Assembly: GCF_026626765.1 (NCBI RefSeq)
Contig: NZ_JAPNJZ010000012.1
Span: forward strand, 1 to 13,011
Reading direction: 5' to 3'
Length of the DNA stretch: 13,011 nucleotides
Source of the DNA: Corallococcus sp. bb12-1
GTDB taxonomy: Bacteria > Myxococcota > Myxococcia > Myxococcales > Myxococcaceae
Position numbers and translations under genes: made by a program. The number at the start of each line of letters is the position of its first letter. Position 1 is the first letter of the stretch. A model generated the notes under the pieces. It did no database searches. It worked only from the letters and a program-made list of their open reading frames with translations, and was not told the DNA's origin. This document shows, piece after piece, positions 1-13,011 of the stretch.

Positions 1-1735
1 CGGTGTCGGCGGTGCCTGCGTCCCTGCCGGAGGTGTCCGGCTGCGCGTCCCGGGAGGGGAGCGCCCTGGCGGAGAAGCTCGTCAGCAGTTCTGTCGGAGG
101 GCTCGGCTCACTCCGGTGACCGCCCAGGGGCTCCGGTTCTTCCTTCGCCGGTGCGGTCGGGAGGGTGGTCCTGGCGGTGTCGCTCCCGCTGTCCACCGAT
201 TCGGTCCGTGAAGGGGCTCGCGAAGGCTCCGGGGCCGGCGCGCGCTCACGCAGCGGCAGGCCCAGCACCATGGGCACCTCATCCGGCCGCATGTCGGGCT
301 CGGTCTTCACGAGCCGCGTGTCCATCCCTTCGTCCAGGGCCATGCCCATCACCAGGGGCAGGTCCTCGGCGCCTTCCTTGGGTGCCGCCGGTTCCGGAGC
401 CGCGGCCTCGGACGGAGCGGCTGGCGCGGCGGGCTTCGCGGCCGGCTTGGGCGCTGGCGCGGGCTTCGAGGCCTCCGGCATGCCCAGGCTCGCGAGCCGG
501 TTGGTGGGCGTGCCCGTCATGGTGACGTCGGGCGGCTCGTTGGCGGCGCCCACCGGCAGGTTTCCGCGGTTCTTCAGGAGCGAATCATAGAGGTCCAGCA
601 GCTGGCCCCGGATGAGGCCCGCGTCCAGCACCTTCTCCGCGTACTCGCGACCGGCCCGCCCCAGCGCCACGCGGCGGGGCACGTCGCGCGCCAGCTCCAC
701 GATGCGCTCGGCGAGCGCGCGGCTGTCCCCGGGTGGGAAGAAGACGGCCGCGTCCTGGGGGATGAGCTCGCGGGTGACGGGCAGGTCCGCGGCGATGACG
801 GGCCGGCCGGAGGCCATGTATTCGGAGACCTTGGCCAGCGGTCCGCCCTGGACCCGGTTGCGCTCCGAGTCGTCCAGGGGCAGCACACCCACGTCCGCCA
901 GGGCCAGCACCTTGAAGAGGTCGTCGTGGACGACGGGCGGCTGGAAGTCGACCTTCTCCTTGAGCCCCAGGTCCTTGACCAGGTCGTCCAGGTGGGGCTT
1001 CCAGTCCGGATGGTGCGCGCCCACGAGCGTCAGGCGCACGTCCACCTGCTGGGCGGCGAGCGCCGTGGCCCTCAGGAGGGTGGGCAGGCCCTGCCAGCCG
1101 ACGTGGCTGCCCAGGTACATCATCCTCAGGGGCGTGCCATCCGGGGCGCCGAGCACCTCCGGGTCATAGGGCTTCAGGTCCACGGGCGCGCGCAGCATGC
1201 GCAGCTGGTCTTCCGCCGCGCCCAGCCCCTGGATGTACCCGCGCGTCGTCTGGGAGCCCGTGACGACGAGGTCCGCGTTCATCAGGCAGAAGAGCTCCTG
1301 CCGGCGGATCTTCGACAGGAAGCGGCGGTCCCCGTCCGTCTGGGGATGGGTGTAGCGCAGCTCCTGCGAGGGGAAGGTCTGCGCCTCATAGATGAGGCGG
1401 TAGCCGTAGTCCGCCTTCAGCTCGCAGAGCGCGTAGCCGCCGAAGGGGTCCGTGAAGTGGGCGAGGGCGTAGTCCTCGCTTTCCAGCTGCCGACGCACGG
1501 CCCGCTCGAAGGATTGGATGCGCGAGGCCAGGTCGCCGGAGCCTACCGGGACGCGAAGCAGCCGTGCGCCCTGGTACTTCTCGATGTGGGAGTGGTCGGG
1601 CGTCTTCGCCGACAGCACCACCACGGAGAAGCGGTCAGGCAACGCCTTCAGATACTCGGTCAGTCGGCGTGAGGAGCCAGACGGGCCGGGGATGACGTCG
1701 AAGCTGCACAGGAGAAGTCTGGGCAGGTCACTCAA
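1..1735 (-). CDS. Family 4 glycosyltransferase (GT-B fold) with a ~200-aa Pro/Ala-rich low-complexity C-terminal extension. The C-terminus runs off the 5' edge of the window (partial, >578 aa).
   Basis: The start is TTG at 1733-1735, the only canonical start after an in-frame TGA three codons upstream. I checked the reverse-complement translation by hand: MSDLPRLLLCSFDVIPGPSGSSRRLTEYLKALPDRFSVVVLSAKTPDHSHIEKYQGARLLRVPVGSGD... continuing to ...VSEYMASGRPVIAADLPVTRELIPQDAAVFFPPGDSRALAERIVELARD... This is a typical GT4 N-terminal Rossmann domain plus the C-terminal nucleotide-sugar-binding motif. The frame stays open with high GC3 through a PAPAPKPAAKPAAPAAPSEAAAPEPAAPKE... tail all the way to position 1. 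It is not in the supplied ORF track, presumably because it is edge-truncated. Confidence 0.75.
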   Translation of the reverse strand, partial: MSDLPRLLLCSFDVIPGPSGSSRRLTEYLKALPDRFSVVVLSAKTPDHSHIEKYQGARLLRVPVGSGDLASRIQSFERAVRRQLESEDYALAHFTDPFGGYALCELKADYGYRLIYEAQTFPSQELRYTHPQTDGDRRFLSKIRRQELFCLMNADLVVTGSQTTRGYIQGLGAAEDQLRMLRAPVDLKPYDPEVLGAPDGTPLRMMYLGSHVGWQGLPTLLRATALAAQQVDVRLTLVGAHHPDWKPHLDDLVKDLGLKEKVDFQPPVVHDDLFKVLALADVGVLPLDDSERNRVQGGPLAKVSEYMASGRPVIAADLPVTRELIPQDAAVFFPPGDSRALAERIVELARDVPRRVALGRAGREYAEKVLDAGLIRGQLLDLYDSLLKNRGNLPVGAANEPPDVTMTGTPTNRLASLGMPEASKPAPAPKPAAKPAAPAAPSEAAAPEPAAPKEGAEDLPLVMGMALDEGMDTRLVKTEPDMRPDEVPMVLGLPLRERAPAPEPSRAPSRTESVDSGSDTARTTLPTAPAKEEPEPLGGHRSEPSPPTELLTSFSARALPSRDAQPDTSGRDAGTADT

Positions 1736-1864
1736 GCGGTCGCAGGATACTTGGACATGGGGAAGGTGTCATCGGTCGTGACGGAAGAAGAACGGGGTCC
1801 GCAGACAAACACATCCCGTGACGGATGCGTTGACCCCCTGTATGCCGCGACATAACGAGGCGGG
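1736..1864. promoter_or_regulatory. Divergent intergenic/promoter region between the GT4 gene (-) and the DUF4912 gene (+). It contains an exact 9-bp direct repeat CGTGACGGA (1777-1785 and 1817-1825, 40 bp apart) and a TTGACC -35-like hexamer at 1830-1835.
   Basis: GC content is locally lower here. The 9-mer occurs exactly twice within 129 bp. I found no convincing -10 hexamer at 17 bp spacing: TAACGA at 1853-1858 is poor, and CATAAC at 1851-1856 sits at 15 bp. Confidence 0.3.
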
Positions 1865-4270
1865 GTGTCCATGGATGAGCGGAAGGGCGTCACCTTGAGC
1901 TACCTGCGCGAGCTGGCCCGGAAATACCTCCGGGAGCGCTCCGGCGCGTCCCGAGGGCGTGAGTTCGTCGCCGCGCTGGCCGAGCGTGTTCCCGCCCTGG
2001 GGCGGCTCGCGCGCCTGGCAGGACTGAGCGTGTCCCAGCGCGGCTCCGGTGACGTGGGCGGTGAAGAGCGCAAGCTGGATTCCGGACCGCCGGATTCTGG
2101 TCCGGTGCAGGGCGCGAAGCCCGGGGCCGTTCCCCTGCCGCCTCCGGAGGTCGCTGACGCCGAAGGCGCACAGGCACGAGAACTTTTCTCGGAACCCATC
2201 ACCGAGCCCAGTGGTGGGCCCCGGACGCGGCCGGCCCGGGTGGTGACGTTCCCTGGCCGTGGTGGCAAGTCGCGCCGGGACCCGGACGACGAGGACACGC
2301 TGCCCTCGTTCCCGGAGACGCCCACGCCGCGTCCTTCGAGCGCGCCGACGCAGGACGCCGCGCCCCCGGCCGCCGCCGGAGCGGGCTTTGCGCCCGTAAG
2401 CGAGCCCCCGCATGCCGCCGAGCCCCTGGTGGAGGGGTTCTTCGTGACGAAGGTCGCGGGGCAGGCCGAAGCGCGCCGCCATCATCTGTTGGAGGAGCAG
2501 GCGCCGCGCCTGCCCCCCGCGGACCCGACGCCCGAGCGGCAGGAGCACCTGGGCGAGCTGCCCCTGGACTACCAGGACGACGCGATGGTGCTGCTCGCGC
2601 GCGATCCGCACACGCTCTTCGTCCTCTGGGACTTCAGTGATGCCAGCCGGCAGCGGGCCCTGGATGAGCTGCCGTCGCCGCGCGCGGTGCTGAAGGTGTT
2701 CGACGGGGAGGGTGTGTCGCGCGAGGTGGACTTCGCGTTGGAGTCGCGCAGCTTCTACCTGCGGGAGATGGCCCCCGGCCGCACGTACCGGGTGGAGGCG
2801 CACTTCGTCGGCTCGGATGGTCGTTCGCGCCGCATCGGACATTCGTCGAACCGGGCGACGCTGCCGCCGGCGGGACCGTCCTCGGACACGTCCATCCGGT
2901 TCCTGCACATGCCGCCCCCGCCCGTCGTGAACCGCGCGCGTGAGCAGGCCGTGCCGGTGGTGGCCCCGCGTGCCGCGGAGCCGCAGGAGCGCGAGTACGT
3001 GACGTGGCGCCGGGTGACGCTGCCGGGCAGCGCGGGCGTGCGCGACGTGCCGGAGGTGCACCGCGAGCGGGCCCCGGGCGCTTCGGATCAGCGCTATGGG
3101 GAGGCGCCCTACCTTGAGAATGTTCCCCGGGCGCCGGGGGCTTCGGACCAGCGGTATGCGCGTGGGGCGGAGGCGACGCCCGGTGAGGGCCTACCCCTGG
3201 CGCCTCCGCGTGCCCCGGGTGCTTCGGATCAGCGCTACCTGTCGGTGGATCGCGCGCCGGGCGCTTCGGATCAGCGCTACGGGCAGACGCTGCTTCCGGG
3301 CGGTGTGTCGGAGTATCGCTACCTGGAGGTTTCTTCCCGCGCCGCCGGAGCTTCGGAACAGCGCTACGTGGAAGGTGCTGGAGGGCAGGGCGCGTCGGGG
3401 CAGAAGTACATCGACGTGCCGCGAGCCCCCGGGGCTTCGGACCAGCGCTACCTCACGGTGTCGCCGGGGCCCGGGGCTTCGGATCAGCAGTACCTGACGG
3501 TGCCTCGTGCGGCGGGTGCATCGGATCAGCGGTATCTGGCCATGGATCGGGTGCCGGGTGCTTCGGATCAGCGGTACCTGACGGTGCCTCGTGCCGCTGG
3601 CGCATCGGAGCAACGCTACCTGGGCACGGAGGGCGCTTCGGGTCCGCAGTACCTGACGGTGCCTCGCGCGGCCGGGGCTTCGGATGCGCGCTATCTGGAG
3701 GACTCGCGCGCACCGGCGGGCCCGCCCGCGGCGCAGGGGCCTGCTGCTCCGCTTCCCGTGAATGGCCGAGGCGTGGGGAATGGCTCGCGCGCGCCTGCGA
3801 CGCCGGTCGCCGCGAAGCGGCCCGCGGACTCCTCCGCGTCGGACTCCCGTGCTCCAGGGGCGGTGGCTCCTGCGTCCTCGCGAGCCTCGGAGGCCGGGGC
3901 TCCCAGCGAGCCGTGGTCCTTGAGCGTGGCGCGCGGTCTGACCGCGTCCGAACAGCGAGCCCTCGACAAGGCGAGAGAAGCTGCCGAGGCGTCGCGGGAG
4001 GCCCCTCCGGCTCCCGCGCCTTCGGGTAACCCTGCTTCGACGGATGCGACGCCCGTGGCCTCGAAGGCCCCTGCCGCTCCTGTGGTGCCGAGCGCTCCAT
4101 CCGCAAAGGCCACCACGCCCCGGACGGAAGCCGCACCCGCTCAACCCTCGGCGCCCTCGAAGCCCGCCCCTCCGGAGCCGCTCGGGAAGGGCTCGCCGGA
4201 GCCTTCGTCTCCGGACTCCAAGTCCTCCACCTCCAAGTCCCGGCGCGCTTCGCGCCGTGGACGTTCGTGA
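1865..4270 (+). CDS. Rho_N-like N-terminus plus DUF4912 domain protein (801 aa). It has an internal array of ~14 tandem GASDQRY-type repeats and a Pro/Ala/Ser-rich C-terminal tail ending in a basic KSRRASRRGRS.
   Basis: The ORF track has a GTG start at 1865, with GAGG 6 nt upstream; an alternative ATG lies at 1871. The N-terminus LSYLRELARKYLRERSGASRGREFVAALAE resembles the Rho termination factor N-terminal (SAP-like) motif usually found at the start of DUF4912 proteins. The core LPLDYQDDAMVLLARDPHTLFVLWDFSDASRQRALDELP...RAVLKVFDGEGVSREVDFALESRSFYLREMAPGRTYRVEAHFVGSDGRSRRIGHSSNRATL is DUF4912-like. The stop is TGA at 4268-4270. Confidence 0.8.
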   Translation: MSMDERKGVTLSYLRELARKYLRERSGASRGREFVAALAERVPALGRLARLAGLSVSQRGSGDVGGEERKLDSGPPDSGPVQGAKPGAVPLPPPEVADAEGAQARELFSEPITEPSGGPRTRPARVVTFPGRGGKSRRDPDDEDTLPSFPETPTPRPSSAPTQDAAPPAAAGAGFAPVSEPPHAAEPLVEGFFVTKVAGQAEARRHHLLEEQAPRLPPADPTPERQEHLGELPLDYQDDAMVLLARDPHTLFVLWDFSDASRQRALDELPSPRAVLKVFDGEGVSREVDFALESRSFYLREMAPGRTYRVEAHFVGSDGRSRRIGHSSNRATLPPAGPSSDTSIRFLHMPPPPVVNRAREQAVPVVAPRAAEPQEREYVTWRRVTLPGSAGVRDVPEVHRERAPGASDQRYGEAPYLENVPRAPGASDQRYARGAEATPGEGLPLAPPRAPGASDQRYLSVDRAPGASDQRYGQTLLPGGVSEYRYLEVSSRAAGASEQRYVEGAGGQGASGQKYIDVPRAPGASDQRYLTVSPGPGASDQQYLTVPRAAGASDQRYLAMDRVPGASDQRYLTVPRAAGASEQRYLGTEGASGPQYLTVPRAAGASDARYLEDSRAPAGPPAAQGPAAPLPVNGRGVGNGSRAPATPVAAKRPADSSASDSRAPGAVAPASSRASEAGAPSEPWSLSVARGLTASEQRALDKAREAAEASREAPPAPAPSGNPASTDATPVASKAPAAPVVPSAPSAKATTPRTEAAPAQPSAPSKPAPPEPLGKGSPEPSSPDSKSSTSKSRRASRRGRS
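3068..3700 (+). repeat. In-frame degenerate tandem repeat array inside the DUF4912 gene: about 14 copies, 11 good and 3 degenerate. The peptide unit is P-R-A-[PA]-G-A-S-[DE]-Q-R-Y-L-T-V and the DNA core is gcttcggatcagcgctac. Unit spacing is 37-81 bp, settling to ~41 bp in the last six copies.
   Basis: The core occurs near 3079, 3138, 3219, 3261, 3347, 3431, 3473, 3517, 3558, 3599 and 3674. Degenerate copies lie near 3311 (SEYRYL), 3391 (GASGQKYI) and 3636 (GASGPQYL). Confidence 0.9.
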
Positions 4271-4296
4271 ACCCGCACGGCCTCTTCGACTGACCT

Positions 4297-5886
4297 ATGA
4301 GCCTGGGCTCCCTCGCGCTGGTCCTCCACGCACATCTCCCCTTCGTCCGTCACCCCGAGCACGAGGACTTCCTCGAGGAGGACTGGCTCTACGAAGCCAT
4401 CTCCGAGACGTACCTGCCGCTGCTGCGCGTGTTCGACGCGCTGGTCGAGGATCGCGTCCCCTTCCGGGTGACGATGACGCTCTCGCCCACGCTCGTCACG
4501 ATGCTCAACGACGACCTGCTGCGCGAGCGCTACGCCCGGCGTCTGGACCTGCTCTGCGAGCTGGGCGCCCGCGAGGTGCACCGCACCCGTCACGACGCCA
4601 CGTTCCATCCGCTGGCCGTCTTCCACCGCGACCACTTCGACTCGCTGCGCCTCGCGTACAACAACCACTACCGGCGCGACCTGGTCGGCGCGTTCCGCAG
4701 GCTCCAGGACGCAGGCCACCTGGAGATCCTCACCTGCAACGCCACCCACGGCTTCCTGCCGCTGATGCAGCAGACGCCCGAGGCCGTGCGCGCCCAGGTG
4801 ACGGTGGCGGCGAACCACTACCGGCAGAACTTCGGCCGTGACCCCGCGGGCATCTGGCTGGCCGAGTGCGGCTACTACCCGGGCCTGGAGCGCATCCTCT
4901 CCGCCGAGCGCATCCGCTATTTCTTCGTCGACACGCACGCGCTCACGGACGCCACCCCCCGCCCGCTGCACGGCCCCTACGCCCCCATCTTCACCGAGCC
5001 GGGCGTCGCCGCCTTCGCGCGCGACCCGGAGAGCAGCCAGCAGGTGTGGAGCACCGAGCACGGCTACCCGGGCGACCCCGTGTACCGCGAGTTCTACCGG
5101 GACATCGGCTGGGACCTGGACCAGGACTACATCCGGCCCTTCATCCAGCCCACCGGCGACCGGAAGAACACCGGCTTCAAGTACTTCCGCATCACCGGCA
5201 AGACGAACGACAAGCAGCCCTATGATCCGGCCGCGGCCCGCGAGCGCGCGGCCGTGCACGCCGGCAACTTCCTCTTCAACCGCGAGCGGCAGTTCGAATA
5301 CCTCGCCTCGCGCATGGGCGGCCGCAAGCCCGTGGTCGTCGCGCCCTACGACGCGGAGCTGTTCGGTCACTGGTGGTTCGAAGGCCCCCACTTCATCGAA
5401 GCACTCATCCGTCAGGCCGCGCGCGAGCCCCGGAAGTTCGACCTCATCAGCCCTCTGGACGACCTGCGCGCGCACCCGGAGAACCAGGTGGCCACGCCGC
5501 CCCTGTCGTCCTGGGGCGCGGGCGGGTACGCGAACATGTGGCTGGATGGGAGCAACGACTGGATCTACCGGCACCTGGACCACTGCGCGAAGCAGATGGT
5601 GGCGCTGGCTCGGGACTTCCCCGACGCCTCGTCCTTGCCGCGCCGGGCGCTGAACCAGGCCGCGCGCGAGCTGCTGCTGGCGCAGTCCTCCGACTGGGCC
5701 TTCATCATGAAGACCGGCACCATGGTGGACTACGCCGTGCGCCGGACGAAGGAGCACCTGCAGCGCTTCCTGCGCCTGCACGACCAGGTGCGCGCGGGAA
5801 CCGTCGATGAAGCGTGGCTGTCCCATGTGGAGGGCCGCGACAACCTGTTTCCAGAACTGGACTACCGGGTGTACCGGCCCGGTTGA
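4297..5886 (+). CDS. Glycoside hydrolase family 57 protein, a 1,4-alpha-glucan branching-enzyme homologue (GH57 catalytic domain plus C-terminal DUF1957-type helical domain), 529 aa.
   Basis: ATG at 4297. The N-terminus MSLGSLALVLHAHLPFVRHPEHEDF matches the GH57 family start motif (hydrophobic stretch then HxHLP[FY]V). GIWLAECGYYPG contains the family's WxAE nucleophile region. WWFEGPHFIE and the C-terminal helical region are also GH57-like. The length is typical for GH57 branching enzymes. The gene lies 26 bp downstream of the DUF4912 gene on the same strand, so an operon is likely. Confidence 0.85.
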   Translation: MSLGSLALVLHAHLPFVRHPEHEDFLEEDWLYEAISETYLPLLRVFDALVEDRVPFRVTMTLSPTLVTMLNDDLLRERYARRLDLLCELGAREVHRTRHDATFHPLAVFHRDHFDSLRLAYNNHYRRDLVGAFRRLQDAGHLEILTCNATHGFLPLMQQTPEAVRAQVTVAANHYRQNFGRDPAGIWLAECGYYPGLERILSAERIRYFFVDTHALTDATPRPLHGPYAPIFTEPGVAAFARDPESSQQVWSTEHGYPGDPVYREFYRDIGWDLDQDYIRPFIQPTGDRKNTGFKYFRITGKTNDKQPYDPAAARERAAVHAGNFLFNRERQFEYLASRMGGRKPVVVAPYDAELFGHWWFEGPHFIEALIRQAAREPRKFDLISPLDDLRAHPENQVATPPLSSWGAGGYANMWLDGSNDWIYRHLDHCAKQMVALARDFPDASSLPRRALNQAARELLLAQSSDWAFIMKTGTMVDYAVRRTKEHLQRFLRLHDQVRAGTVDEAWLSHVEGRDNLFPELDYRVYRPG

Positions 5887-5893
5887 GCGCTTC

Positions 5894-5919
5894 GGGAACA
5901 GGCGGGCTGGCCGGGAGTT
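5894..5919 (+). promoter_or_regulatory. Candidate ECF-sigma-type promoter upstream of the htrA/degP homologue: GGGAACA (5894-5900), a 16-nt spacer, then GTT (5917-5919).
   Basis: A GGAAC -35 followed 16-17 nt later by a GTT-containing -10 is the general architecture of ECF sigma (SigE/SigH/SigR-type) promoters. It sits about 70 bp upstream of the ATG at 5989. This is pattern matching only. Confidence 0.3.
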
Positions 5920-5928
5920 AACCTCCCG
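5912..5928. terminator. Short GC-rich hairpin CGGGAG-ttaac-CTCCCG (6-bp stem, 5-nt loop), 26 bp after the GH57 stop codon. It has no T-tract.
   Basis: The inverted repeat is seen directly at 5912-5917 and 5923-5928. It could be a weak terminator or processing stem for the DUF4912-GH57 transcript. It also overlaps the putative ECF -10 element, so its role is ambiguous. Confidence 0.2.
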
Positions 5929-5988
5929 CGAGCGGACGATGTCGTTCCGGTTGCGGGGACTCGTTTCCGCTTTAGCTTGAAGGAATCC

Positions 5989-7488
5989 ATGACCCACACG
6001 CTCCTTCCGTTCCGTCGCAAGCTCGTGACCGCCGTGTTGGTGCTGGCGTCGCCCACACTCGCCCTGGCGCAGGCTCCGGCGCCCAAGCCCGCCGCTCCGC
6101 GGACGCAGCCGGCGGTCACCGGGCAGGCCGGCAACCTCCAACCCGCCACGCGCGAGGCCCAGTCGCTGGCCTCGCTGGCCCCGCTGGTGGACTCGGTGAA
6201 GTCCGCCGTCGTGAACGTGGATGTGCAGGCCCGTCCCGAAATGCCGGAGGGCATGGAGGACAACCCGCTCTTCGACCGCTTCTTCGGCGGAAACGGTGGG
6301 CGGGGTGGCGGCCGCAGTGAGCGGGAGCAGGTCCGCCAGGGCGCCGGGTCCGGCTTCATCATCGACCCCAAGGGTCTGGTGCTCACCAACAACCACGTCA
6401 TCGCGGACGCGGTCACCATCACCATCCGCCTGGACGACGGCCGTTCGTTCACCGGCGAGGTGGTGGGGCGCGACCCGCTCACCGACGTGGCCGTGGTGAA
6501 GATCAAGGAGAAGGTGGATCAGCTGCCCACCGTGAAGCTGGGCGACTCGGACGCGGTGCGCGTGGGCGACTGGGTGCTGGCCATTGGCAACCCGTTCGGC
6601 CTCGCGTCCAGCGTCAGCGTGGGCATCCTGTCCGCGCGGGCCCGGGAGATTGGCGCCAGCGCGTACGACGACTTCCTCCAGACGGACGCGGCCATCAACC
6701 CTGGCAACTCCGGCGGCCCGCTGTTCAACATGAAGGGCGAGGTGGTGGGCATCAACACCGCCATCGTCGGCGGCGGCACGGGCATCGGCTTCTCCGTGCC
6801 CAGCAACCTCATCAAGGCGCTCCTGCCGCAGTTGGAGAAGAGCGGCTCCGTCACGCGCGGCTGGCTGGGCGTGGGCATCCAGCCCCTCACGCGCGACTTG
6901 GCGCAGGCGCTGAAGCTGCCAGTGAACGAGGGCGCCATCCTCACGCAGATCAACCCCGGCTCCCCCGCGGCGAAGGCGGGGCTCAAGGCGGACGACGTGG
7001 TCGTCGCCGTGGACGGGCAGAAGGTCCGCTCCGACAGCGAGCTCACCCGCACGGTGGCGCTCAAGAAGCCCAACAGCGTCACCACGCTCAGCCTCTACCG
7101 CGACGGCAAGGCCCAGGACGTGAAGGTGACCATGGGCACCCGGCCGGACCTGGAGGGCCTGTCCAAGAAGAAGCCCGAGGCCGCCGAGGAGCAGGACACC
7201 TCGCGCCGCGTGGGCGTGTCCCTGCAGGACCTGGATGCGCGCACCGCGTCCCAGGCGGGCTTCACCGAACGCTCCGGGGCGCTCATCACCGACGTCCTCC
7301 CCGGCTCGCCCGCGGACCGCGCGCAGCTGTCCCCGGGCATGTTGGTGGTGGAGGCGAACCGCAAGCCCATCGCGAGCGCGAAGGAGCTGGCTGCGGTCAT
7401 CCGCGCCGCGCCCGCGGGCGGCACCCTGCTGCTGCGCGTGGCCGGTCCCGGCGGCGGGCGGCTCCTGCGCGCGTTGAAGATGCCCTGA
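5989..7488 (+). CDS. htrA: Periplasmic HtrA/DegP/DegQ (Do) family serine endoprotease with a signal peptide and two PDZ domains, 499 aa.
   Basis: ATG at 5989 with AAGGA 5-8 nt upstream; the ORF track's TTG at 5977 is less likely. The signal peptide is MTHTLLPFRRKLVTAVLVLASPTLALAQA. Trypsin-fold motifs are present: GSGFIIDPKGLVLTNNHVI (His), DVAVVKI (Asp) and GNSGGPLFN (Ser). Two PDZ-like segments follow, containing GAILTQINPGSPAAKAGLKADDVVVAVDG and GALITDVLPGSPADRAQLSPGMLVVEANRKPI. Stop is TGA at 7486-7488. Confidence 0.9.
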   Translation: MTHTLLPFRRKLVTAVLVLASPTLALAQAPAPKPAAPRTQPAVTGQAGNLQPATREAQSLASLAPLVDSVKSAVVNVDVQARPEMPEGMEDNPLFDRFFGGNGGRGGGRSEREQVRQGAGSGFIIDPKGLVLTNNHVIADAVTITIRLDDGRSFTGEVVGRDPLTDVAVVKIKEKVDQLPTVKLGDSDAVRVGDWVLAIGNPFGLASSVSVGILSARAREIGASAYDDFLQTDAAINPGNSGGPLFNMKGEVVGINTAIVGGGTGIGFSVPSNLIKALLPQLEKSGSVTRGWLGVGIQPLTRDLAQALKLPVNEGAILTQINPGSPAAKAGLKADDVVVAVDGQKVRSDSELTRTVALKKPNSVTTLSLYRDGKAQDVKVTMGTRPDLEGLSKKKPEAAEEQDTSRRVGVSLQDLDARTASQAGFTERSGALITDVLPGSPADRAQLSPGMLVVEANRKPIASAKELAAVIRAAPAGGTLLLRVAGPGGGRLLRALKMP

Positions 7489-7503
7489 GGCGAGCGAGCG
7501 GCG

Positions 7504-8097
7504 ATGAGCGTCAACTACGTCTCGCTGGGTGACAGCACGGCGGTGGGGGTGGGGGCGGCGCAGGGCGGGGGATATCCCGACCGGCTCGCCTCCCGCCTCC
7601 GACAGGGTGGCCTGCCGGTGGGCCACACCAACCTGGGGCAGAGCGGCGCGCGCGTGCGCGACGTCGTCACCCACGCCCTCAAGCGCGTCGTCGCGTTGCA
7701 GCCCACGCTCATCACCCTGGGCGTGGGCACCAACGACCTCTGGCGCGGCACCGAGGTGGCGGAGTACCAGGACGACCTGGACCGCATCGCCCGGCGCCTG
7801 AAGCAGACCGGCGCGTCCATGGTGGTGGTGAACCTGGCCGACATGGCGCTCGCGCCCATCGCGAAGCTGGTGCCGAGCGCGCTGTACGAAGGGCGCATCG
7901 AGCCGTTCAACGAAGCCATCGCCACGGTGGCCCGCGCGCACGGCCTGCACCTGGTGGACCTGTACACGGCCAGCCGCGAGATGATCCCCCGGCGCTCTGA
8001 CTTCTTCTCCCCGGACGGCTTCCACCCGTCCGCGGTGGGCTACGAAGAGTGGGCGGACCTGATGCTGCCCGTGGTGCGCACGCTCGTGCAGCGCTGA
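7504..8097 (+). CDS. SGNH/GDSL-family hydrolase (esterase/lipase-like), 197 aa. It is probably co-transcribed with htrA, given the 15-bp gap.
   Basis: Block I is VSLGDSTAVG (GDS nucleophile), block II is NLGQSGARV, block III is GVGTNDLW and block V is DGFHPS (DxxH). I did not identify a signal peptide. Confidence 0.8.
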   Translation: MSVNYVSLGDSTAVGVGAAQGGGYPDRLASRLRQGGLPVGHTNLGQSGARVRDVVTHALKRVVALQPTLITLGVGTNDLWRGTEVAEYQDDLDRIARRLKQTGASMVVVNLADMALAPIAKLVPSALYEGRIEPFNEAIATVARAHGLHLVDLYTASREMIPRRSDFFSPDGFHPSAVGYEEWADLMLPVVRTLVQR

Positions 8098-8120
8098 GTC
8101 CCGCGCACCGTTTCCCGCTT
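8073..8120. terminator. Possible terminator between the convergent SGNH (+) and cyclase (-) genes: GGTGCGC (8073-8079) pairs with GCGCACC (8103-8109) around a 23-nt loop, followed on the + strand by GTTTCCCGCTT.
   Basis: The 7-bp inverted repeat spans the SGNH stop codon (8095-8097). The loop is large, but an inner GCT...AGC pairing is possible. The downstream U-tract is weak. The two stop codons are only 22 bp apart. Confidence 0.2.
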
Positions 8121-10045
8121 CACGCCTTGGCGATGCCCGAGGGGGCAGGGGGCGTCGTCGGAGCGTCCGAGGGCGGGGCGTTGATGCTGCGCTCGCGGCC
8201 GGGGTGCATCTCCATGCCCGCTTCGAAACACGTCACGCGGTTGCGGCCCGTGCGCTTGCTGCAATAGAGCGCCGAGTCCGCGCAATCCACCAGCGTCTCC
8301 TGCGAGTTCGCGTCCGTGGGGAAGTGCGCGACGCCAATGGACACCGTGACGTGGTTGCCCGGCAGGCCCGGCCGGCCCAGCGCTCCGGAATCCGCCACCG
8401 CGCGGCGCAGCGTCTCCGCGACCTCGAACGCCGTCGCCTTGGAGACCTGCGGCAGCAGCAGCACGAACTCCTCGCCGCCATAGCGCCCCAGCGTGTCCAC
8501 CTTGCGCGCGCGGGTGCGCAGCACGTCGGAGACCCGGCGCAGCGTCTCATCACCGGCCCGGTGTCCGGCCAGGTCGTTGAGCCGCTTGAAGTGGTCCACG
8601 TCCACCATCAGGAGCGCCAGCGGCACGCCGAAGCGCTGGGCGCGCGCCAGCTCCAGGTCCAACCGCTGGAAGAGGTGGCGCCGGTTGGGCACGCCCGTGA
8701 GCGCGTCCGTCAGCGTGAGCTTCACCGTCTCCGCGTGCAGGCGCGCGTTCGTCACCGCAGTGGCCGCCTGATCCGCCACCGCGGTGAAGAGCTCGATCTC
8801 CTCCGCGGAGAAGCACGCCGTCTCCGGCCGCTGGAAGTTGATGACGCCCAGGAGCGTCTCCGCGTGCACCATGGGCACCGCGAGCAGCGAGCCCTGCTCC
8901 GAACCGCCGCGCAGGCCGCGCCGGGCGAAGATGCTGGTGCTGTCGGTGAGGTCCGGCAGGTACACCGCCTTGCGCGTCTGGGCGGCCCGGCCACACGCGC
9001 CCTCGCCCACGGCGAAGGTGTGGCCCTCCAGGCCCCGGCCCTTCGGCCACGCGTGCTTCACCTCCAGCATGCCGTCCTCGTTGAGGAGCATGATGGAGAA
9101 GTCGGGGATGTGCAGGCGCTCCACCACCATGCGGGTGATGCGCGACAGGAGCTCGTCCAGCTCCAGCGTGGTGTTGAGCGAGCGCGCCACGTCGAAGAGC
9201 AGCGACAGCTCCAGCAGGCGCTCCTCCAGTTCGTCCTTGAGCGCCAGCTTCTCCTTCACCAGCTCCAGGTCGCGGTGCGTGTCGATCTCCTCCACCTTCA
9301 TGGAGGTGAGCCGCGCGAGCATCTGGTTGAAGGCCGCGCCCAGCCGCGAAATCTCATCCGTGCCCCGGGCGTCCGCGCGCACCAGCAGGTCTCCGGACTC
9401 CGCGCGCCCCATGACCTCGCTCAGCCGCTTGAGCGGACGCGTGAGGACGAAGCGCAGGCTCAGCCACGTGACGAGCGCCAGGATGCCCACGAAGAGCACC
9501 ATCGCCCCCAGCGCGTCGCCGAACATCGTCTGCAACTGGCGGTGCAGCGCGGGCTCGCCCAGGCGCACCTGCAACGCGCCCATGCGCTGCGCGGCCTCGC
9601 CGGTGTGACAGCCGGAGCACTCGGGGCCGCCAAGGGGCCGCACCACCTCCGTGCCGTGGTCGATGGTGCGCGCCGCCTCCTGCCCCGTCGCCGACAGCCG
9701 CGCGGCCTCCGGATGCGGGTGGCCCTGTTCGGCTGGACGCCGGCTCCACCGGATGCGCCCGTCCGGCGTCAGCACCCGCAGGTCCTCCACGGAGCGGAAC
9801 AGCCGCGTGTCCGACGCCAGCACCTCCGCCACCGCGCCGTGCGGAGCCGCGCCCGGCGCCTGCGGCAGGGTGAACGTGGACGCCACGAACTCCGCCAGCG
9901 CCAGGGCTTCCAGGTGCGTGCCTTCGCGCACGGCCTGCCGCGTCTCGCGCGAGAAGTGCCACACGCCCAGCAACGCCACCACCAACCCTGGCAGGCCAAT
10001 GCTCCAGAGGAGCTTCCTGCCAATCGTCTCGGAACCCAGGGCCAT
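8120..10045 (-). CDS. Membrane-bound sensor diguanylate cyclase: TM1, a ~140-aa periplasmic domain with a CxxCH motif, TM2, HAMP, a coiled coil, GAF and GGDEF (GGEEF active site with an RxxD I-site).
   Basis: The stop is TGA, read as tca at 8120-8122. I prefer the ATG at 10045 (MALGSETIGRKLLWSIGLPGLVVALLGVWHF, where TM1 begins) to the track's TTG at 10135, because the putative promoter lies between them. The HAMP segment is LKRLSEVMGRAESGDLLVRADARGTDEISRLGAAFNQMLARL. The GAF domain contains LLFDVARSLNTTLELDELLSRITRMVVERLHIPDFSIMLLNEDG... The GGDEF domain contains LTGVPNRRHLFQRLDLELARAQRFGVPLALLMVDVDHFKRLNDLAGHRAGDETLRRV, with RKVD followed five residues later by GGEEF (canonical I-site spacing). 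The periplasmic motif GGPECSGCHTGEA is encoded at 9605-9619. Confidence 0.85.
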   Translation of the reverse strand: MALGSETIGRKLLWSIGLPGLVVALLGVWHFSRETRQAVREGTHLEALALAEFVASTFTLPQAPGAAPHGAVAEVLASDTRLFRSVEDLRVLTPDGRIRWSRRPAEQGHPHPEAARLSATGQEAARTIDHGTEVVRPLGGPECSGCHTGEAAQRMGALQVRLGEPALHRQLQTMFGDALGAMVLFVGILALVTWLSLRFVLTRPLKRLSEVMGRAESGDLLVRADARGTDEISRLGAAFNQMLARLTSMKVEEIDTHRDLELVKEKLALKDELEERLLELSLLFDVARSLNTTLELDELLSRITRMVVERLHIPDFSIMLLNEDGMLEVKHAWPKGRGLEGHTFAVGEGACGRAAQTRKAVYLPDLTDSTSIFARRGLRGGSEQGSLLAVPMVHAETLLGVINFQRPETACFSAEEIELFTAVADQAATAVTNARLHAETVKLTLTDALTGVPNRRHLFQRLDLELARAQRFGVPLALLMVDVDHFKRLNDLAGHRAGDETLRRVSDVLRTRARKVDTLGRYGGEEFVLLLPQVSKATAFEVAETLRRAVADSGALGRPGLPGNHVTVSIGVAHFPTDANSQETLVDCADSALYCSKRTGRNRVTCFEAGMEMHPGRERSINAPPSDAPTTPPAPSGIAKA

Positions 10046-10106
10046 GTGCGGAACGCAGTGTCTCCGAAGCCCGCGCGTTCTGTGCAGCGGGAAGGAGTGT
10101 CCAGAA

Positions 10107-10135
10107 ATTGTCAGGGGGGTGACACGCCCTGTCAA
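10107..10135 (-). promoter_or_regulatory. Sigma70-type promoter on the minus strand reading toward the cyclase gene: TTGACA (complement of 10130-10135), a 17-nt spacer, then GACAAT (complement of 10107-10112).
   Basis: It has a perfect -35 hexamer and a 4/6 -10 hexamer that keeps the conserved A2 and T6. The predicted transcription start near 10100 lies downstream of the TTG at 10135, which supports the ATG at 10045 as the true start. Confidence 0.35.
10109..10134. promoter_or_regulatory. Nested inverted repeats TGTCA-N6-TGACA-N5-TGTCA (10109-10113, 10120-10124, 10130-10134) overlapping the -35/spacer of the putative cyclase promoter. The geometry resembles a CRP/FNR-family operator.
   Basis: TGTCA and TGACA are reverse complements. 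The first pair forms a 16-bp 5-N6-5 palindrome, one mismatch per half-site from the E. coli CRP consensus TGTGA-N6-TCACA. It sits in the 190-bp divergent region between the cyclase and pgeF genes. Confidence 0.3.
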
Positions 10136-10237
10136 ACGTACTCACGTGGAAATATTGAAGCTGGACTGCTGTTAGCAGCGAGTTCCTGTTTTCAGGGGCT
10201 GCGCCCATCATGGGGCGGAAGGCCCGAGGAAAGCCCC

Positions 10238-11035
10238 ATGTCGTCCACGTCCGCGCCTGCATTCCTCACGTCCGCGCTGTTGCCGGTGCCGCACGGCTTC
10301 GCCACGCGCGAGGGTGGGGTGTCGGAAGGGCCCTACGCGTCGCTGAACCTGGGGTTCTCCGTGGGCGACGAGCGCTCCCGCGTGGAGGAGAACCACCGGC
10401 GGCTGGCCCGGGCGGTGGGCGCGAAGCTGGGCGCGCTGGGCCGGGTGTCGCAGGTGCACGGCGACCGGGTGCTGGAGGTGAAGGGCGAAGCCGAAGACGT
10501 GCTGCGCCCGACGCTGGGTGAAGCGGACGCGCTGTGGACCGAAGGGGAGGGCAGCTGGGTGGCGGTGGGCACCGCGGACTGCGTGCCGGTGCTGCTGGTG
10601 GATCCGCGGGGGCGCCGGGTGGCGGCGGTGCACTCGGGCTGGAAGGGCACGGACCTGGAGATCAGCGCGCGCACGGTGGAGGCGCTGGTGGCGAAGGGTT
10701 CGCGGCCGGAGCACCTGCTGGCGGCGGTGGGCCCCTGCATCCAGGCGTGCTGCTACGAGGTGTCGGCGGAATTGGGGGAGCGCTTCCGGGCGCGCTTCGG
10801 TCCGGAGGTGGTGCGCGAAGGCGTGAAGCCCCACCTGGATCTTCCCCGGGCGGTGAGGGGCTCGCTGCTCAAGGCGGGCCTGAAGCCGGAACACGTGGAC
10901 GTGCTACAGGCCTGTACGGCGTGTGAGCGCGAGCGGTTCTTCTCCCACCGCCGGGACGCGGGGCTCACGGGCCGGCACCTCAATTTCGTGCTACACCAGT
11001 TCGAGCGTCCCGTTCCAGACCGGCCGTTTTCTTGA
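10238..11035 (+). CDS. pgeF: PgeF/YfiH family protein (peptidoglycan editing factor; DUF152, laccase-domain / purine nucleoside phosphorylase-like), 265 aa.
   Basis: ATG at 10238 with GAGGA about 9 nt upstream. It lies in the same frame as the long artefactual ORF 8204-11035. Family motifs present: LNLGFSVGDE, GTADCVPVLLVD (conserved Cys), AAVHSGWKGT (conserved His) and GPCIQACCYEV. Stop is TGA at 11033-11035. Confidence 0.85.
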   Translation: MSSTSAPAFLTSALLPVPHGFATREGGVSEGPYASLNLGFSVGDERSRVEENHRRLARAVGAKLGALGRVSQVHGDRVLEVKGEAEDVLRPTLGEADALWTEGEGSWVAVGTADCVPVLLVDPRGRRVAAVHSGWKGTDLEISARTVEALVAKGSRPEHLLAAVGPCIQACCYEVSAELGERFRARFGPEVVREGVKPHLDLPRAVRGSLLKAGLKPEHVDVLQACTACERERFFSHRRDAGLTGRHLNFVLHQFERPVPDRPFS

Positions 11036-11089
11036 CGGTCTCCGACCGGCCTTCCTATCCTCGACGCGGAATCTCCTCCGTCCAGGCTC

Positions 11090-11926
11090 GTGCCGGTGCG
11101 CTCCTTCTTCTTCCGCCTGTTTGCTGTCGTGGCGCTGTGCGCGCCGACTGGTTGCGCCACCACCGCCGCTTCCCAGACGGAAGTGGGGCGGCTGGAGGCG
11201 GAGCTGCGCACGCTGCGCGTCACCCAGGCGAAGCTGGTGGAGCGCCTGGAGCGGCTGGAGAACCGTGACGCCGTCGCCCGCGCCCGCGCCGCGTCCACGC
11301 CGGCGACGCCTGCTCCGGCGCCCGCGAAGAAGCCCGACGCGCCCCCCGCCGACGAAGGCCTGGGGCTGCCCCCGTCGGAGCTTGCGGTGGTGCGGCTCAA
11401 GCCGAAGAAGGAACCGGCCCCGCGCATCGCCACGGCGGTCGCGGTGTCGGAGCCGGATCCGGACCAGATGGAGATGTTCATCAGCCCGGCGGACGGTTCG
11501 TCGGGGACCGCGTCTCCGGGCCGGGTGGAGGTGCCGGACAAGGATCCGGCCATCCTCGAAGCCGAGTACGAGCACGCCGTGGCGCTCCTGCGCACCGGCA
11601 ACGTGGACGGGGGCGTGGAGCAGCTCACGCGCTTCGCGGAGGAGAACCCCCGCCACCCCCGCGCGGACAACGCGCTGTACTTCACCGGCCTGGGGCAGAT
11701 GGGCCTCCATGACACGGCCAGCGCCGCGAAGACGTTCGAACGCCTCATCAAGACCTACCCCGCTGGGGATGCCATCCTGGACGGCATGCTCCGGCTCGCG
11801 GAGTGCCGGGTGCGGCTGAATCAGGCCGTGGATGCCAGGGCCCTCTATACTCGCGTCGTCACCCAGTTCCCGGGGACGGCCGCCGCCACGCAGGCGGAGC
11901 AGCGGCTCGCCGCGCTCTCGCCGTAA
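11090..11926 (+). CDS. Exported coiled-coil plus tetratricopeptide-repeat protein resembling YbgF/CpoB (the Tol-Pal-associated periplasmic protein), 278 aa.
   Basis: GTG start at 11090, the first start after the in-frame stop at 11033. The N-terminal signal is MPVRSFFFRLFAVVALCAPTGCATT. A coiled coil follows: QTEVGRLEAELRTLRVTQAKLVERLERLENRD. The C-terminal TPR region carries the YbgF-type pattern ...ALYFTGLGQMGLHDTASAAKTFERLIKTYPAGDAILDGMLRLAECRVRLNQAVDARALYTRVVTQFPGTAAATQAEQRLAAL. Stop is TAA at 11924-11926. Confidence 0.7.
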   Translation: MPVRSFFFRLFAVVALCAPTGCATTAASQTEVGRLEAELRTLRVTQAKLVERLERLENRDAVARARAASTPATPAPAPAKKPDAPPADEGLGLPPSELAVVRLKPKKEPAPRIATAVAVSEPDPDQMEMFISPADGSSGTASPGRVEVPDKDPAILEAEYEHAVALLRTGNVDGGVEQLTRFAEENPRHPRADNALYFTGLGQMGLHDTASAAKTFERLIKTYPAGDAILDGMLRLAECRVRLNQAVDARALYTRVVTQFPGTAAATQAEQRLAALSP

Positions 11927-11953
11927 GACCTTTTCGTGAAAGGACGTCGTCCG

Positions 11954-13011
11954 ATGCGCTCCCGGATCCTCGCCTCCCTGCTCGTGCCCCTCGCCATCTC
12001 GCCGGCGTGGACGGCCCATGCCCAGCAGCAGGACGCGCAAGAGGAGGAACCGCAGCCGGCCAGCAGTGAGACGGAAGGCCAGGACATCTCCGACGAAGCC
12101 CCGGAGCGCCCCACCTCCGTCACGCTGCCCCCAGGTGCCGCCCAGGGCCGCGAAAGCGCCCCCGGTCAGGTGCACACGGTGGAGGGCGGCGACACGCTGT
12201 GGGATTTGTCCCAGCGCTACCTGGGCAGCCCCTGGTACTGGCCCAAGGTCTGGTCCTACAACCCGCAGATCGCCAACCCGCACTGGATCTACCCGGGCAA
12301 CAACGTGAAGTTCTTCCCCGGCGGCGAGGAAGTGCCGTCGCGCGTGGAGGCGGGTGACCTTCCCTCCGACGACGTGGTGGCGCCCCAGGACGTGAGCGGC
12401 GCCAGCCTGGTGTCGGTGGTGGGGAAGATCGGCTACGACGTGTCCGCGTCCCGGCCGGTGACGACCAAGGGCTTCGTGACGTCGCGCGAGCTGGACGAGG
12501 CGGGCCGCATCGAAGGCTCCCCCTCCGAGGCGCTGATGCTGTCGACTCCGGAGCGGGTCTACCTGCGCTTCAAGAAGAAGGGCGCCGCCAAGGTGGGGGA
12601 TCGCTACGTCATCTTCCACACCGTGGAGCCGGTGAAGCATCCGGTCACGGGCGCCAAGGCGGGCTTCCTCACGGAGCTGCTGGGCACGGTCCAGGTGACC
12701 GCCATCAACGACGAGATGGTGACCGCCCGCATCATGGAGACCTGGGACCCCATCGAGCGCGGCAACTACGTGGGCCCCTCCAGCGAGCGGCTGTCGGAGC
12801 GCGTGGCGCCCAAGCCGAACTCCAAGGAGATCCCCGGCTACGTGCTGACGCCGATGACGCCGGGCCAGACCGTGATGGGCGAGCACCACTACATCGTCGT
12901 GGACCGCGGCACCGCGGACGGCGTGCAGGTCGGCAACACCTTCACCATCGAGCGCAAGGGCGACCCGAGCCTCGACGTGCTCAGCCGCGTCGACTCGAAG
13001 CCGGGCGAGAT
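11954..13011 (+). CDS. Secreted LysM peptidoglycan-binding domain protein. The N-terminal 352 aa are in the window and the 3' end runs off the edge.
   Basis: ATG at 11954 with AAAGGA about 10 nt upstream. My hand translation gives the signal MRSRILASLLVPLAISPAWTAHAQQ. The LysM domain is HTVEGGDTLWDLSQRYLGSPWYWPKVWSYNPQIANPHWIYPGNNVKF. The downstream region (...RVYLRFKKKGAAKVGDRYVIFHTVEPVKHPVTGAKAGFLTELLGTVQVTAINDEMVTARIMETW...) matches no domain I recognise. It is missing from the ORF track because it is edge-truncated. Confidence 0.8.
   Translation, partial: MRSRILASLLVPLAISPAWTAHAQQQDAQEEEPQPASSETEGQDISDEAPERPTSVTLPPGAAQGRESAPGQVHTVEGGDTLWDLSQRYLGSPWYWPKVWSYNPQIANPHWIYPGNNVKFFPGGEEVPSRVEAGDLPSDDVVAPQDVSGASLVSVVGKIGYDVSASRPVTTKGFVTSRELDEAGRIEGSPSEALMLSTPERVYLRFKKKGAAKVGDRYVIFHTVEPVKHPVTGAKAGFLTELLGTVQVTAINDEMVTARIMETWDPIERGNYVGPSSERLSERVAPKPNSKEIPGYVLTPMTPGQTVMGEHHYIVVDRGTADGVQVGNTFTIERKGDPSLDVLSRVDSKPGE

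Follow-up and report, generated by a model that had tools for sequence, protein, structure and literature searches.

An array of fourteen repeats in a DUF4912 protein

What role might fourteen tandem copies of one short motif play in a protein encoded beside enzymes of alpha-glucan synthesis? The question is raised by a 13,011-nucleotide (nt) stretch of the genome of Corallococcus sp. bb12-1 (contig NZ_JAPNJZ010000012.1, positions 1 to 13,011; hereafter the window), in which a member of DUF4912, a widespread family without known function, carries such an array between its folded core and a long C-terminal tail. The answer favoured here, with somewhat less than even confidence, is that the array serves as a multivalent docking strip for some folded member of the alpha-glucan machinery encoded alongside it. 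The gene and the array are as follows.

1865 to 4270, + strand: DUF4912-family gene encoding 801 amino acids (aa), taken as the open reading frame (ORF) that begins with GTG at 1865
3068 to 3700, + strand: array of 14 units, [Y/H]L.V.R[AP].G-A-S-[DE]-Q-[RKQ], delineated by regular-expression scan, Tandem Repeats Finder, AlphaFold2 (AF2) and the ratio of nonsynonymous to synonymous substitution rates (dN/dS)

The original prediction for this DNA had described about 14 in-frame repeats at 3068-3700 with a near-identical core of about 18 base pairs (bp), and both statements are borne out. By a regular-expression scan and a Tyr-anchored listing, G-A-S-[DE]-Q-[RKQ]-Y occurs in frame exactly 14 times from nt 3077 to 3697, in units such as YLTVPRAAGASDQRYLAMDRVPGASDQRY. 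The core Gly residues lie at aa 405, 425, 452, 466, 480, 495, 509, 523, 537, 551, 565, 579, 590 and 604 (codons at nt 3077, 3137, 3218, 3260, 3302, 3347, 3389, 3431, 3473, 3515, 3557, 3599, 3632 and 3674). Successive Tyr residues are separated by 20, 27, 14, 14, 15, 14 (six times), 11 and 14 aa, so that the period, first put at 13-14 aa, settles at 14, while the range of spacings is 11-27 aa and not the 12-27 aa first given. Gly, Ser and Tyr are present in 14 of 14 cores, as is Arg, Lys or Gln at the position before Tyr; Ala is found in 13, an acidic residue in 12 and Gln in 11. In the DNA, Tandem Repeats Finder detects a period of 42 bp from 3215 to 3697, and the 18-mer GCTTCGGATCAGCGCTAC occurs 11 times with no more than three mismatches, against 0.01 occurrences expected from shuffled sequences.

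The array is predicted to be disordered. In a full-length AF2 model its residues (aa 405-620) have predicted local distance difference test scores (pLDDT) of only 34-46, and when the array was modelled alone, using an alignment of ten Corallococcus arrays, the mean pLDDT was 39.7, the predicted template modelling score 0.10, and secondary structure was entirely absent. The check by AlphaFold that had been proposed for folded repeats, for example a beta-solenoid, thus gave a negative answer; a folded beta-solenoid or an ESV1-like sheet was rejected because both runs left the array unfolded.

Selection on the repeat cores

Selection was assessed by the Nei-Gojobori method, comparing the window gene with seven Corallococcus orthologues. 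The motif cores have the lowest dN/dS in the gene (0.08-0.17, with core dS up to 0.74), against 0.14-0.36 in the folded domain, 0.26-0.86 in the linkers between motifs and 0.32-0.74 in the C-terminal tail. Variants peculiar to one position of the array, for example 'GVSEYRYLEV', are found at that position in every Corallococcus species compared.

The codons used within the motif, compared in the window array and in the orthologous arrays of loci L001-L042, are rare and specific to each genus. In Corallococcus they differ sharply from those of the neighbouring branching enzyme gene (GCT 72% against 1%, GAT 58% against 4%, TCG 97% against 26%), and in Archangium the corresponding codons are TCC-TCC-GAG. 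Because these codons are both rare and genus-specific, comparison of the sequences indicates that the copies within each genus descend from a founder DNA unit of their own. A role for the 42-bp repeat in DNA or RNA was rejected, since the unusual codons are genus-specific and selection falls on the amino-acid sequence.

These data bear directly on the view that the array is a neutral low-complexity expansion, generated by replication slippage or unequal recombination and consisting of functionless copies. Such a process would account for the insertion and deletion of whole units between species and strains, and for copies made within each genus from one DNA unit; yet it is largely refuted by the pattern of selection just described, by the retention of position-specific variants, and by conservation of the core across genera and, as a single copy, in distant Myxococcota. 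It is accordingly considered very improbable.

Lineage distribution of the motif

Across genera the unit is a 14-residue motif, [Y/H]-L-[TSE]-V-x-R-[AP]-x-G-[AS]-S-[DE]-Q-[RQ]. In Corallococcus the units directly adjoin one another, and the Tyr at the end of a core doubles as the opening residue of the unit that follows; the Myxococcus xanthus motif is spread over units of 15 to 38 residues; Stigmatella has the version 'YLE..RP.GSSEQ.LE'; and Archangium and Vitiosangium have W-x-x-S-x-G-P-x-G-S-S-E-Q-W, in which Trp, placed one position earlier, replaces Tyr. Ser is 100% invariant, in every copy from every genus, with small residues flanking it and an acidic residue next, while Tyr is present in 94% of copies in Corallococcus and 86% in Myxococcus. 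The original prediction had named Tyr and the Ser/acidic pair as invariant: for Ser and Tyr this holds throughout the window array, and the acidic residue is kept in most copies, but Tyr is not conserved beyond Corallococcus and Myxococcus.

Within Myxococcota the array has anywhere from 0 to 16 copies. Corallococcus species have 10-15 copies, Myxococcus and Pyxidicoccus 4-16, and Archangium and Vitiosangium 3-11; Hyalangium and deep-branching Myxococcaceae metagenome-assembled genomes (MAGs) have one or two (for example '...HLEPPARPEGSSEQQAWKPPPSGRGR' and '...RHLEPPARPEGSSEQQAWKPPPSGRGR'); Vulgatibacter and other distant Myxococcota have a single 'LG[AS]SE'; and there are none in still deeper MAGs or in a Planctomycetales homologue. 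The single-copy motifs of ancestral type ('LGASETM', 'LGASENL') contain no aromatic residue at all. Because the aromatic residue differs by genus and is missing from the single-copy forms, the sequences point to G-[AS]-S-[DE](-Q) as the conserved core and to the aromatic residue as a later, lineage-variable addition. The variation in copy number that had been foreseen is also seen between strains, where whole units have been gained or lost: strains of M. xanthus differ in having 9, 10 or 12 units, and those of C. exiguus in having 15-16. In the window itself, a 25-residue unit ('RAPGASDQRYGQTGGSEGHRYLEVP'-like) is missing from the array near nt 3260; it is complete in eight of nine Corallococcus relatives and shortened in the ninth, and its absence is a strain- or species-specific deletion of a whole unit.

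A profile search of 1.84 billion representative sequences yielded 1129 family clusters, and among the best 150 of these the members that could be named belong to Myxococcota (Vulgatibacter and a Myxococcales MAG). Among 138 more distant representatives the median length is 361 aa (interquartile range 299-414), in line with the earlier figure of 250-430 aa for typical DUF4912 proteins, and the 801-aa length of the window protein is indeed due to its array and tails. In many of the distant representatives one 'LG[AS]SE' lies in a short tail ending 'RPWSG..' or 'W.PPPSGRGR', and most Myxococcota family members have one or other of these endings, the Corallococcus protein ending instead in '...SRRASRRGRS' (4238-4267). 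A terminus of the form '...SG.GR[S]' or 'W.PPPSGRGR' is kept in other genera. When the repeat region alone was searched against 5.8 billion proteins a single match was returned, to a partial Corallococcus orthologue, a result uninformative on other protein contexts; our guess is that the composition filter of HMMER removed repetitive matches. Specificity was gauged by one test only, a scan of the motif regular expression over the six-frame translation of 718 kb of related loci, which gave 222 matches in the DUF4912 frame and none elsewhere.

A conserved association with a glycosyltransferase and a branching enzyme

The neighbours of the DUF4912 gene are the following.

1 to 1750, − strand: GT4 glycosyltransferase gene, partial and divergent, assigned from its translation and Pfam GT4/GT1 domains
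4297 to 5886, + strand: GH57 1,4-alpha-glucan branching enzyme gene, assigned from Pfam Glyco_hydro_57 and BE_C

Both genes adjoin the DUF4912 gene, as had been noted at first, with the qualification that the GT4 gene is divergent and not co-directional: it lies 114 bp upstream on the opposite strand, while the GH57 gene starts 26 bp downstream on the same strand. The GH57 protein matches NCBIfam branching-enzyme models with E values of 1e-94 to 1e-96, which fall below the equivalog cut-offs. The order GT4(divergent)-DUF4912-GH57 is found in essentially all of the 60 or more Myxococcota loci with enough flanking sequence, the two enzymes being far better conserved there than the DUF4912 protein. 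Outside Myxococcota the order is DUF4912-GH57-GlgA(GT5), in a Planctomycetales MAG, an Omnitrophota contig and a JGI metagenome contig (L065, L067 and L068); in the latter two a PfkB-family kinase follows GlgA, and DUF4912 and GH57 are separated by 2 bp or overlap by 4 bp. The DUF4912 proteins of these non-myxobacterial loci have 260-450 aa and a folded C-terminal Glucodextran_B-like Ig domain (PF09136), and lack the motif. DUF4912 proteins are therefore conserved companions of GH57 branching enzymes across phyla, and in Myxococcota a GT4 occupies the place held elsewhere by GlgA.

Behind its catalytic domain the GT4 has a long disordered tail, which the left end of the window cuts off. The enzyme's nearest sequence in the PDB is 6kih, Tll1590, which we take to be sucrose-phosphate-synthase-like, and the only relatives found for it are generic retaining GT4 enzymes. 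From its context we infer that it is a glucosyltransferase, and it may be an alpha-1,4-glucan synthase. Complete orthologues (among them those of loci L003, L006, L012, L015, L017, L022-L024 and L043) have 540-1300 aa, of which a disordered tail of 150-900 aa bears lineage-specific tandem repeats: in Corallococcus 'EE.PAPTP[IV]VRRP' occurs five or six times, together with 'DKPPIRGG', and in one Myxococcaceae genome (L017) 'DASSATPVVKAPASLSRSE' occurs about eight times. They share a strongly conserved C-terminal module, 'LNPWFAQLAHGYCPPEG..FARHTPPTNFPGRD', that has no match in Pfam. GT4 length rises with the number of DUF4912 motifs (Spearman 0.44, p 0.003, uncorrected for phylogeny).

The '...SRRASRRGRS' terminus of the Corallococcus DUF4912 protein resembles 'RHTPPTNFPGRD' in this conserved GT4 module, which hints at a docking element shared by the two C-termini.

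Docking as the favoured function of the array

The docking strip is preferred because the array combines predicted disorder, a constrained core, variable spacers, descent by amplification from an ancient single copy, and linkage to a pair of enzymes. In the mechanism proposed, an ancient short linear motif in the disordered tail of the Myxococcota DUF4912 proteins would have been amplified in particular lineages, with a short hydrophobic stretch ([YH]-L-[ED]-V) and Arg ahead of its core G-[AS]-S-[DE](-Q). Each 14-residue unit would then be a docking site for one folded partner, and fourteen such units in tandem would make a multivalent strip of high avidity. The host protein would be a cytoplasmic accessory of the GH57-branching-enzyme route to an alpha-glucan resembling glycogen, and on that account the candidate partners are the GH57 branching enzyme, the GT4 synthase-like protein or the particle that they build. 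The DUF4912 protein may in this way act as a scaffold that concentrates the glucan machinery, its Rho_N-like N-terminal module and basic tail perhaps providing anchorage elsewhere in the cell. We infer all three of these elements, the motif as a binding site, the identity of its partner and the scaffold role. The possibility of multivalent partner binding, which was among those originally raised, is the one that best fits the predicted disorder and the purifying selection, strongest on the cores. The similar construction of the GT4, with its repeat-bearing disordered tail and conserved C-terminal module, was also counted in favour of docking.

Several considerations tell against a docking role. 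In the full-length AF2 model none of the units docks confidently on the protein's own FN3-like domain, and self-binding in cis is unsupported. An invariant Ser with an acidic residue next to it looks equally like an acceptor site for a kinase or glycosyltransferase, and evenly spaced Tyr and Arg residues would also suit non-specific self-association as 'stickers'. The dN/dS values for the cores must be read with caution, since mis-paired units or gene conversion can distort this ratio between repeat arrays. Finally, deep-branching orthologues work with no copies of the motif, so that the array must be an accessory to DUF4912/GH57 function and not its core. The four functional readings, docking, covalent modification, glucan binding and self-association, are not mutually exclusive.

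The invariance of Ser is one argument for reading the array instead as a series of acceptor sites, where covalent modification would fall on each unit's Ser or, in this lineage, on its Tyr. In one version the adjoining GT4 would O-glucosylate the protein, which would prime or carry alpha-glucan chains as a multi-site analogue of glycogenin; in another, one of the many Ser/Thr kinases of myxobacteria would phosphorylate it for regulation. The small residues that flank the Ser and the acidic residue that follows it agree with this, as do a disordered context of the kind typical of modification sites and a GT4 gene that is always adjacent. There are precedents: the GT4 enzymes GtfA/GtfB attach O-linked sugars to Ser residues of tandem-repeat adhesins whose genes lie close by, and Ser is also the target of heptosyltransferases in the repeats of AIDA-I/TibA. 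Against it, the Tyr gives way to Trp or to nothing outside Corallococcus and Myxococcus, which makes a glycogenin-like Tyr linkage unlikely as the conserved role. Orthologues without the motif adjoin GH57, so the synthase/branching pair needs no such primer; outside Myxococcota the synthase is the GT5 enzyme GlgA, which is not known to require a protein primer, and the DUF4912 protein there is free of the motif. The DUF4912 protein contains neither a GT8 nor any other transferase domain, and the best relative of the GT4 in the PDB is Tll1590. On balance an acceptor-site array is a distinct if minor possibility. Its most specific form, in which the GT4 glucosylates Ser (or both Ser and Tyr) in each unit and the chains are elongated and branched on the protein, appears improbable. 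If it were true the protein would be a bacterial 'proteoglucan', with a glycogenin-like function, an unrelated sequence and up to 16 initiation sites per molecule.

The glucosylation of Tyr in the manner of glycogenin, one of the functions first suggested, is unlikely as a conserved function because the Tyr is not conserved: a search for a conserved acceptor Tyr failed, the residue being Trp in Archangium and Vitiosangium and the motif non-aromatic in distant lineages. The glycosylation or priming idea was also to count as refuted if orthologues adjacent to GH57 lacked the repeats entirely, which would then be a lineage-specific low-complexity insertion. Such orthologues were indeed found (in deep Myxococcota MAGs, Omnitrophota, Planctomycetota and a metagenome contig), so that the array is no general requirement of the synthase/GH57 module; the corollary of a neutral insertion was not borne out.

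The linkage to a branching enzyme also agrees with direct binding of glucan, in which the disordered strip would lie along an alpha-1,4-glucan, aromatic residues stacking on glucose and Asp, Gln and Arg hydrogen-bonding to its hydroxyls, so as to tether the protein and the cargo of its FN3-like domain to the particle surface. Each unit offers Tyr (Trp in Archangium) together with Asp/Glu, Gln and Arg at a spacing of 13-14 residues, and all of these are residue types enriched in carbohydrate-binding sites. Aromatic repeats that bind alpha-glucan are known from the YG or cell-wall-binding repeats of glucansucrases and from the Trp-rich repeats of plant ESV1/LESV. These known repeats are, however, folded as beta-hairpin solenoids or sheets, whereas the array is predicted to be unfolded, and a Pfam/NCBIfam scan found no match to CW_binding, to CBM families or to any model covering the repeat. 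Within the motif it is the aromatic residue that varies most, and single-copy tails of ancestral type lack it; the invariant Gly and Ser have no obvious part in sugar stacking. Direct glucan binding is for these reasons unlikely. With conservation weakest at the aromatic residue and the succession small, small, Ser, acidic invariant, the motif is better matched to a pocket on a protein partner, as the docking proposal requires, than to sugar stacking.

The composition of the array, with about one aromatic and two Arg residues per 14, a net charge near zero and spacers rich in Gly, Ala and Pro, would suit sticker-and-spacer self-association. Here Tyr and Arg (or Trp) would make the protein's tail phase-separate or gel, alone or together with that of the GT4, and the resulting condensate would surround the glucan machinery with no one-to-one docking. 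The presence of repeat-bearing disordered tails, rising in length together, in both of the divergently encoded proteins agrees with this. Sticker models tolerate drift near the stickers, however, and in this array conservation is higher at Gly, Ala/Ser, Ser and Asp/Glu than at the aromatic position; the dN/dS of the cores is below that of the folded domain, and a single-copy ancestral motif cannot act multivalently. Self-association of this kind is unlikely.

Comparison with known repeat proteins

CsoS2 and CcmM in carboxysomes, and EPYC1 in the algal pyrenoid, are multivalent scaffolds of metabolic bodies that act through short motifs. Like them, the DUF4912 array belongs to a mostly disordered protein with copies of one short motif separated by variable spacers, encoded beside a presumed client enzyme and varying in copy number with lineage; the general features of such scaffolds, a disordered region with repeated, conserved short motifs and variable spacers, are found here as pLDDT values of 34-46 and spacings of 11-27 aa. 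The motif is unrelated, however, and the known scaffolds serve CO2 fixation, where the DUF4912 protein would serve alpha-glucan synthesis and its binding to a client is a proposal only. Unlike them, it also has a folded FN3-like domain and a Rho_N-like N-terminal module. Glycogenin, the self-glucosylating GT8 primer of eukaryotic glycogen, resembles it in being dedicated to a glucan pathway and in having a conserved hydroxyl-bearing residue, but has a GT8 domain and a single site, whereas the DUF4912 protein has no transferase domain, 14 sites, and a Tyr not conserved beyond two genera.

The serine-rich-repeat adhesins (with GtfA/GtfB) and AIDA-I/TibA likewise have tandem repeats with an invariant Ser beside a cytoplasmic glycosyltransferase, which for the serine-rich-repeat adhesins is of family GT4, as at this locus. 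They are secreted cell-surface adhesins with signal peptides, and their repeats are either very rich in Ser (the serine-rich-repeat proteins) or beta-helical (AIDA-I); by comparison the DUF4912 array is 9% Ser, the protein has no visible signal peptide, and its neighbours point to intracellular glucan metabolism. Proteins of the PhaM or AlgP type are associated with granules or the nucleoid and have tails rich in Pro, Ala and Lys. The DUF4912 protein is comparable to them as an accessory of a storage polymer with a basic, Pro/Ala-rich tail and a possible nucleic-acid-binding module at its N-terminus, but it lacks KPAA-type repeats, and its acidic/polar repeat has no counterpart in PhaM. The non-myxobacterial DUF4912 proteins (Omnitrophota, Planctomycetota, Cyanobacteria) share the same core, often with a Rho_N-like N-terminus, and are encoded directly upstream of GH57; they differ in that an Ig domain replaces the disordered tail, the motif is absent and the accompanying synthase is the GT5 GlgA and not a GT4. 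The array protein thus lies outside the CsoS2/CcmM/EPYC1, glycogenin, serine-rich-repeat glycoprotein and glucan-binding repeat families.

Architecture of the host protein

Around the array the protein comprises the following parts.

1895 to 2017, + strand: N-terminal three-helix module, Rho_N or helix-extended-helix-like (aa 11-51), from AF2
2570 to 2887, + strand: DUF4912 core, an FN3-like beta-sandwich (aa 236-341), from Pfam and AF2
2987 to 3070, + strand: beta-hairpin 'EREYVTWRRVT-LPGSAG-VRDVPEVHRER' (aa 375-402), from AF2 and the orthologue alignment
3716 to 4267, + strand: disordered C-terminal tail rich in Pro, Ala and Ser, net basic (+9), ending ...SRRASRRGRS, from composition and AF2
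3920 to 3964, + strand: degenerate 15th copy 'LSVARGLTASEQRAL' (aa 686-700), read directly from the sequence

NCBI places the start two codons later, giving the 799-aa 'DUF4912 domain-containing protein [Corallococcus sp. bb12-1]' (P0001; 100% identity). Long ORFs that overlap the array at 3096 to 3497 (+ strand), 3191 to 4144 (− strand) and 3453 to 4136 (− strand) were taken as artefacts of a G+C content of about 70% and of the repeat; the homologue search behind this choice was run on the DUF4912 frame only, and homologues were found there. Pfam PF16258 (DUF4912) matches aa 236-341 with an E value of 1.3e-18 and 67.8 bits, against a gathering cut-off of 29.4, and the same model matches 71 of 71 aligned orthologues. 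It is the sole family that a Pfam scan detected in the 801-aa protein, and a search of the whole sequence against the PDB returned no relatives. Some databases label the orthologues 'alginate regulatory protein AlgP'.

The full-length AF2 model, built with 71 orthologues, folds four pieces, namely the N-terminal helices, the DUF4912 core, the hairpin and a helix at aa 694-711, and leaves the remainder at pLDDT below 50. The three N-terminal helices (aa 11-22, 28-41 and 43-51; pLDDT 60-82) form a charged module, and neither the sequence nor the model has a hydrophobic signal segment there. Rho_N (PF07498) is matched by 23 of the 71 orthologues, at best with E 2.6e-4, the window protein remaining unmatched at E values up to 0.1. 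The DUF4912 core has pLDDT above 90 over aa 240-340. The strands of the hairpin (aa 375-385 and 392-402; pLDDT 77-87) contain or flank residues R376, Y378, W381, R383 and L386-S389, which are invariant across the 71 orthologues, and the second strand, 'VPEVHRER', leads directly into the first unit, 'APGASDQRY'. The hairpin segment 'REYVTWRRVTLPGSAG' (2987-3115, aa 375-417) looks like a repeat unit ('QRYLTV-PRA-PGASDQ') and may be the origin of the repeat; the 'YLxV' half of the unit may form a strand upon binding. The C-terminal tail has pLDDT below 50 apart from its one helix (aa 694-711, pLDDT 73-80). The degenerate 15th copy, alone in this tail, continues into the helix, the tail's only confident one (to aa 711, nt 3997), and is kept in C. 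coralloides as 'LSVARGPSASEQRALDKAREAA'.

Wider relevance

No published work on this repeat or protein was found in the literature on DUF4912, the M. xanthus orthologue (Q1D821), Myxococcus glycogen and its branching enzyme, the Myxococcus phosphoproteome and GH57 gene clusters. The only mention of DUF4912 encountered was a report that a Rho_N-plus-DUF4912 protein is conserved in Cyanobacteria, its function unknown (PMC13613805). The GH57 passages of a Chem Rev review of alpha-glucans, in the portions available, name no accessory protein. The family is here tied firmly to the GH57-branching-enzyme route in Myxococcota, Planctomycetota and Omnitrophota, and in Myxococcota a disordered tail has taken the place of its folded C-terminal domain, the one conserved motif of this tail having been amplified up to 16-fold. 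The larger interest lies in a handle on an uncharacterised and phylogenetically wide accessory of GH57-type glycogen synthesis: the 14-residue peptide is a precise bait, and the series of natural proteins with 0-16 copies offers a means of studying how glucan synthesis is organised, primed or regulated, with special relevance to organisms in which fruiting-body sporulation draws on glycogen. Should the motif prove to be a glycosylation site, it would represent a new way of initiating a storage polysaccharide.

Other genes of the window

The remaining genes of the window lie beyond the GH57 gene.

5977 to 7488: DegP/HtrA-type protease with two PDZ domains, syntenic in most Myxococcaceae/Archangiaceae loci
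7504 to 8097: GDSL/SGNH hydrolase
8120 to 10135, − strand: GGDEF diguanylate cyclase
10238 to 11035: Cu-oxidase_4/YfiH-like protein
11090 to 11926: YbgF/CpoB-like TPR protein
from 11927: LysM-domain protein, running off the right end of the window

A minor observation concerns locus L017, whose record is titled Comamonas sp. KCTC 72670. It contains a Myxococcus-type GT4-DUF4912-GH57-HtrA locus, in which the GT4 and GH57 proteins are respectively 87% and 83% identical to those of the window, and the record is probably mislabelled or contaminated.

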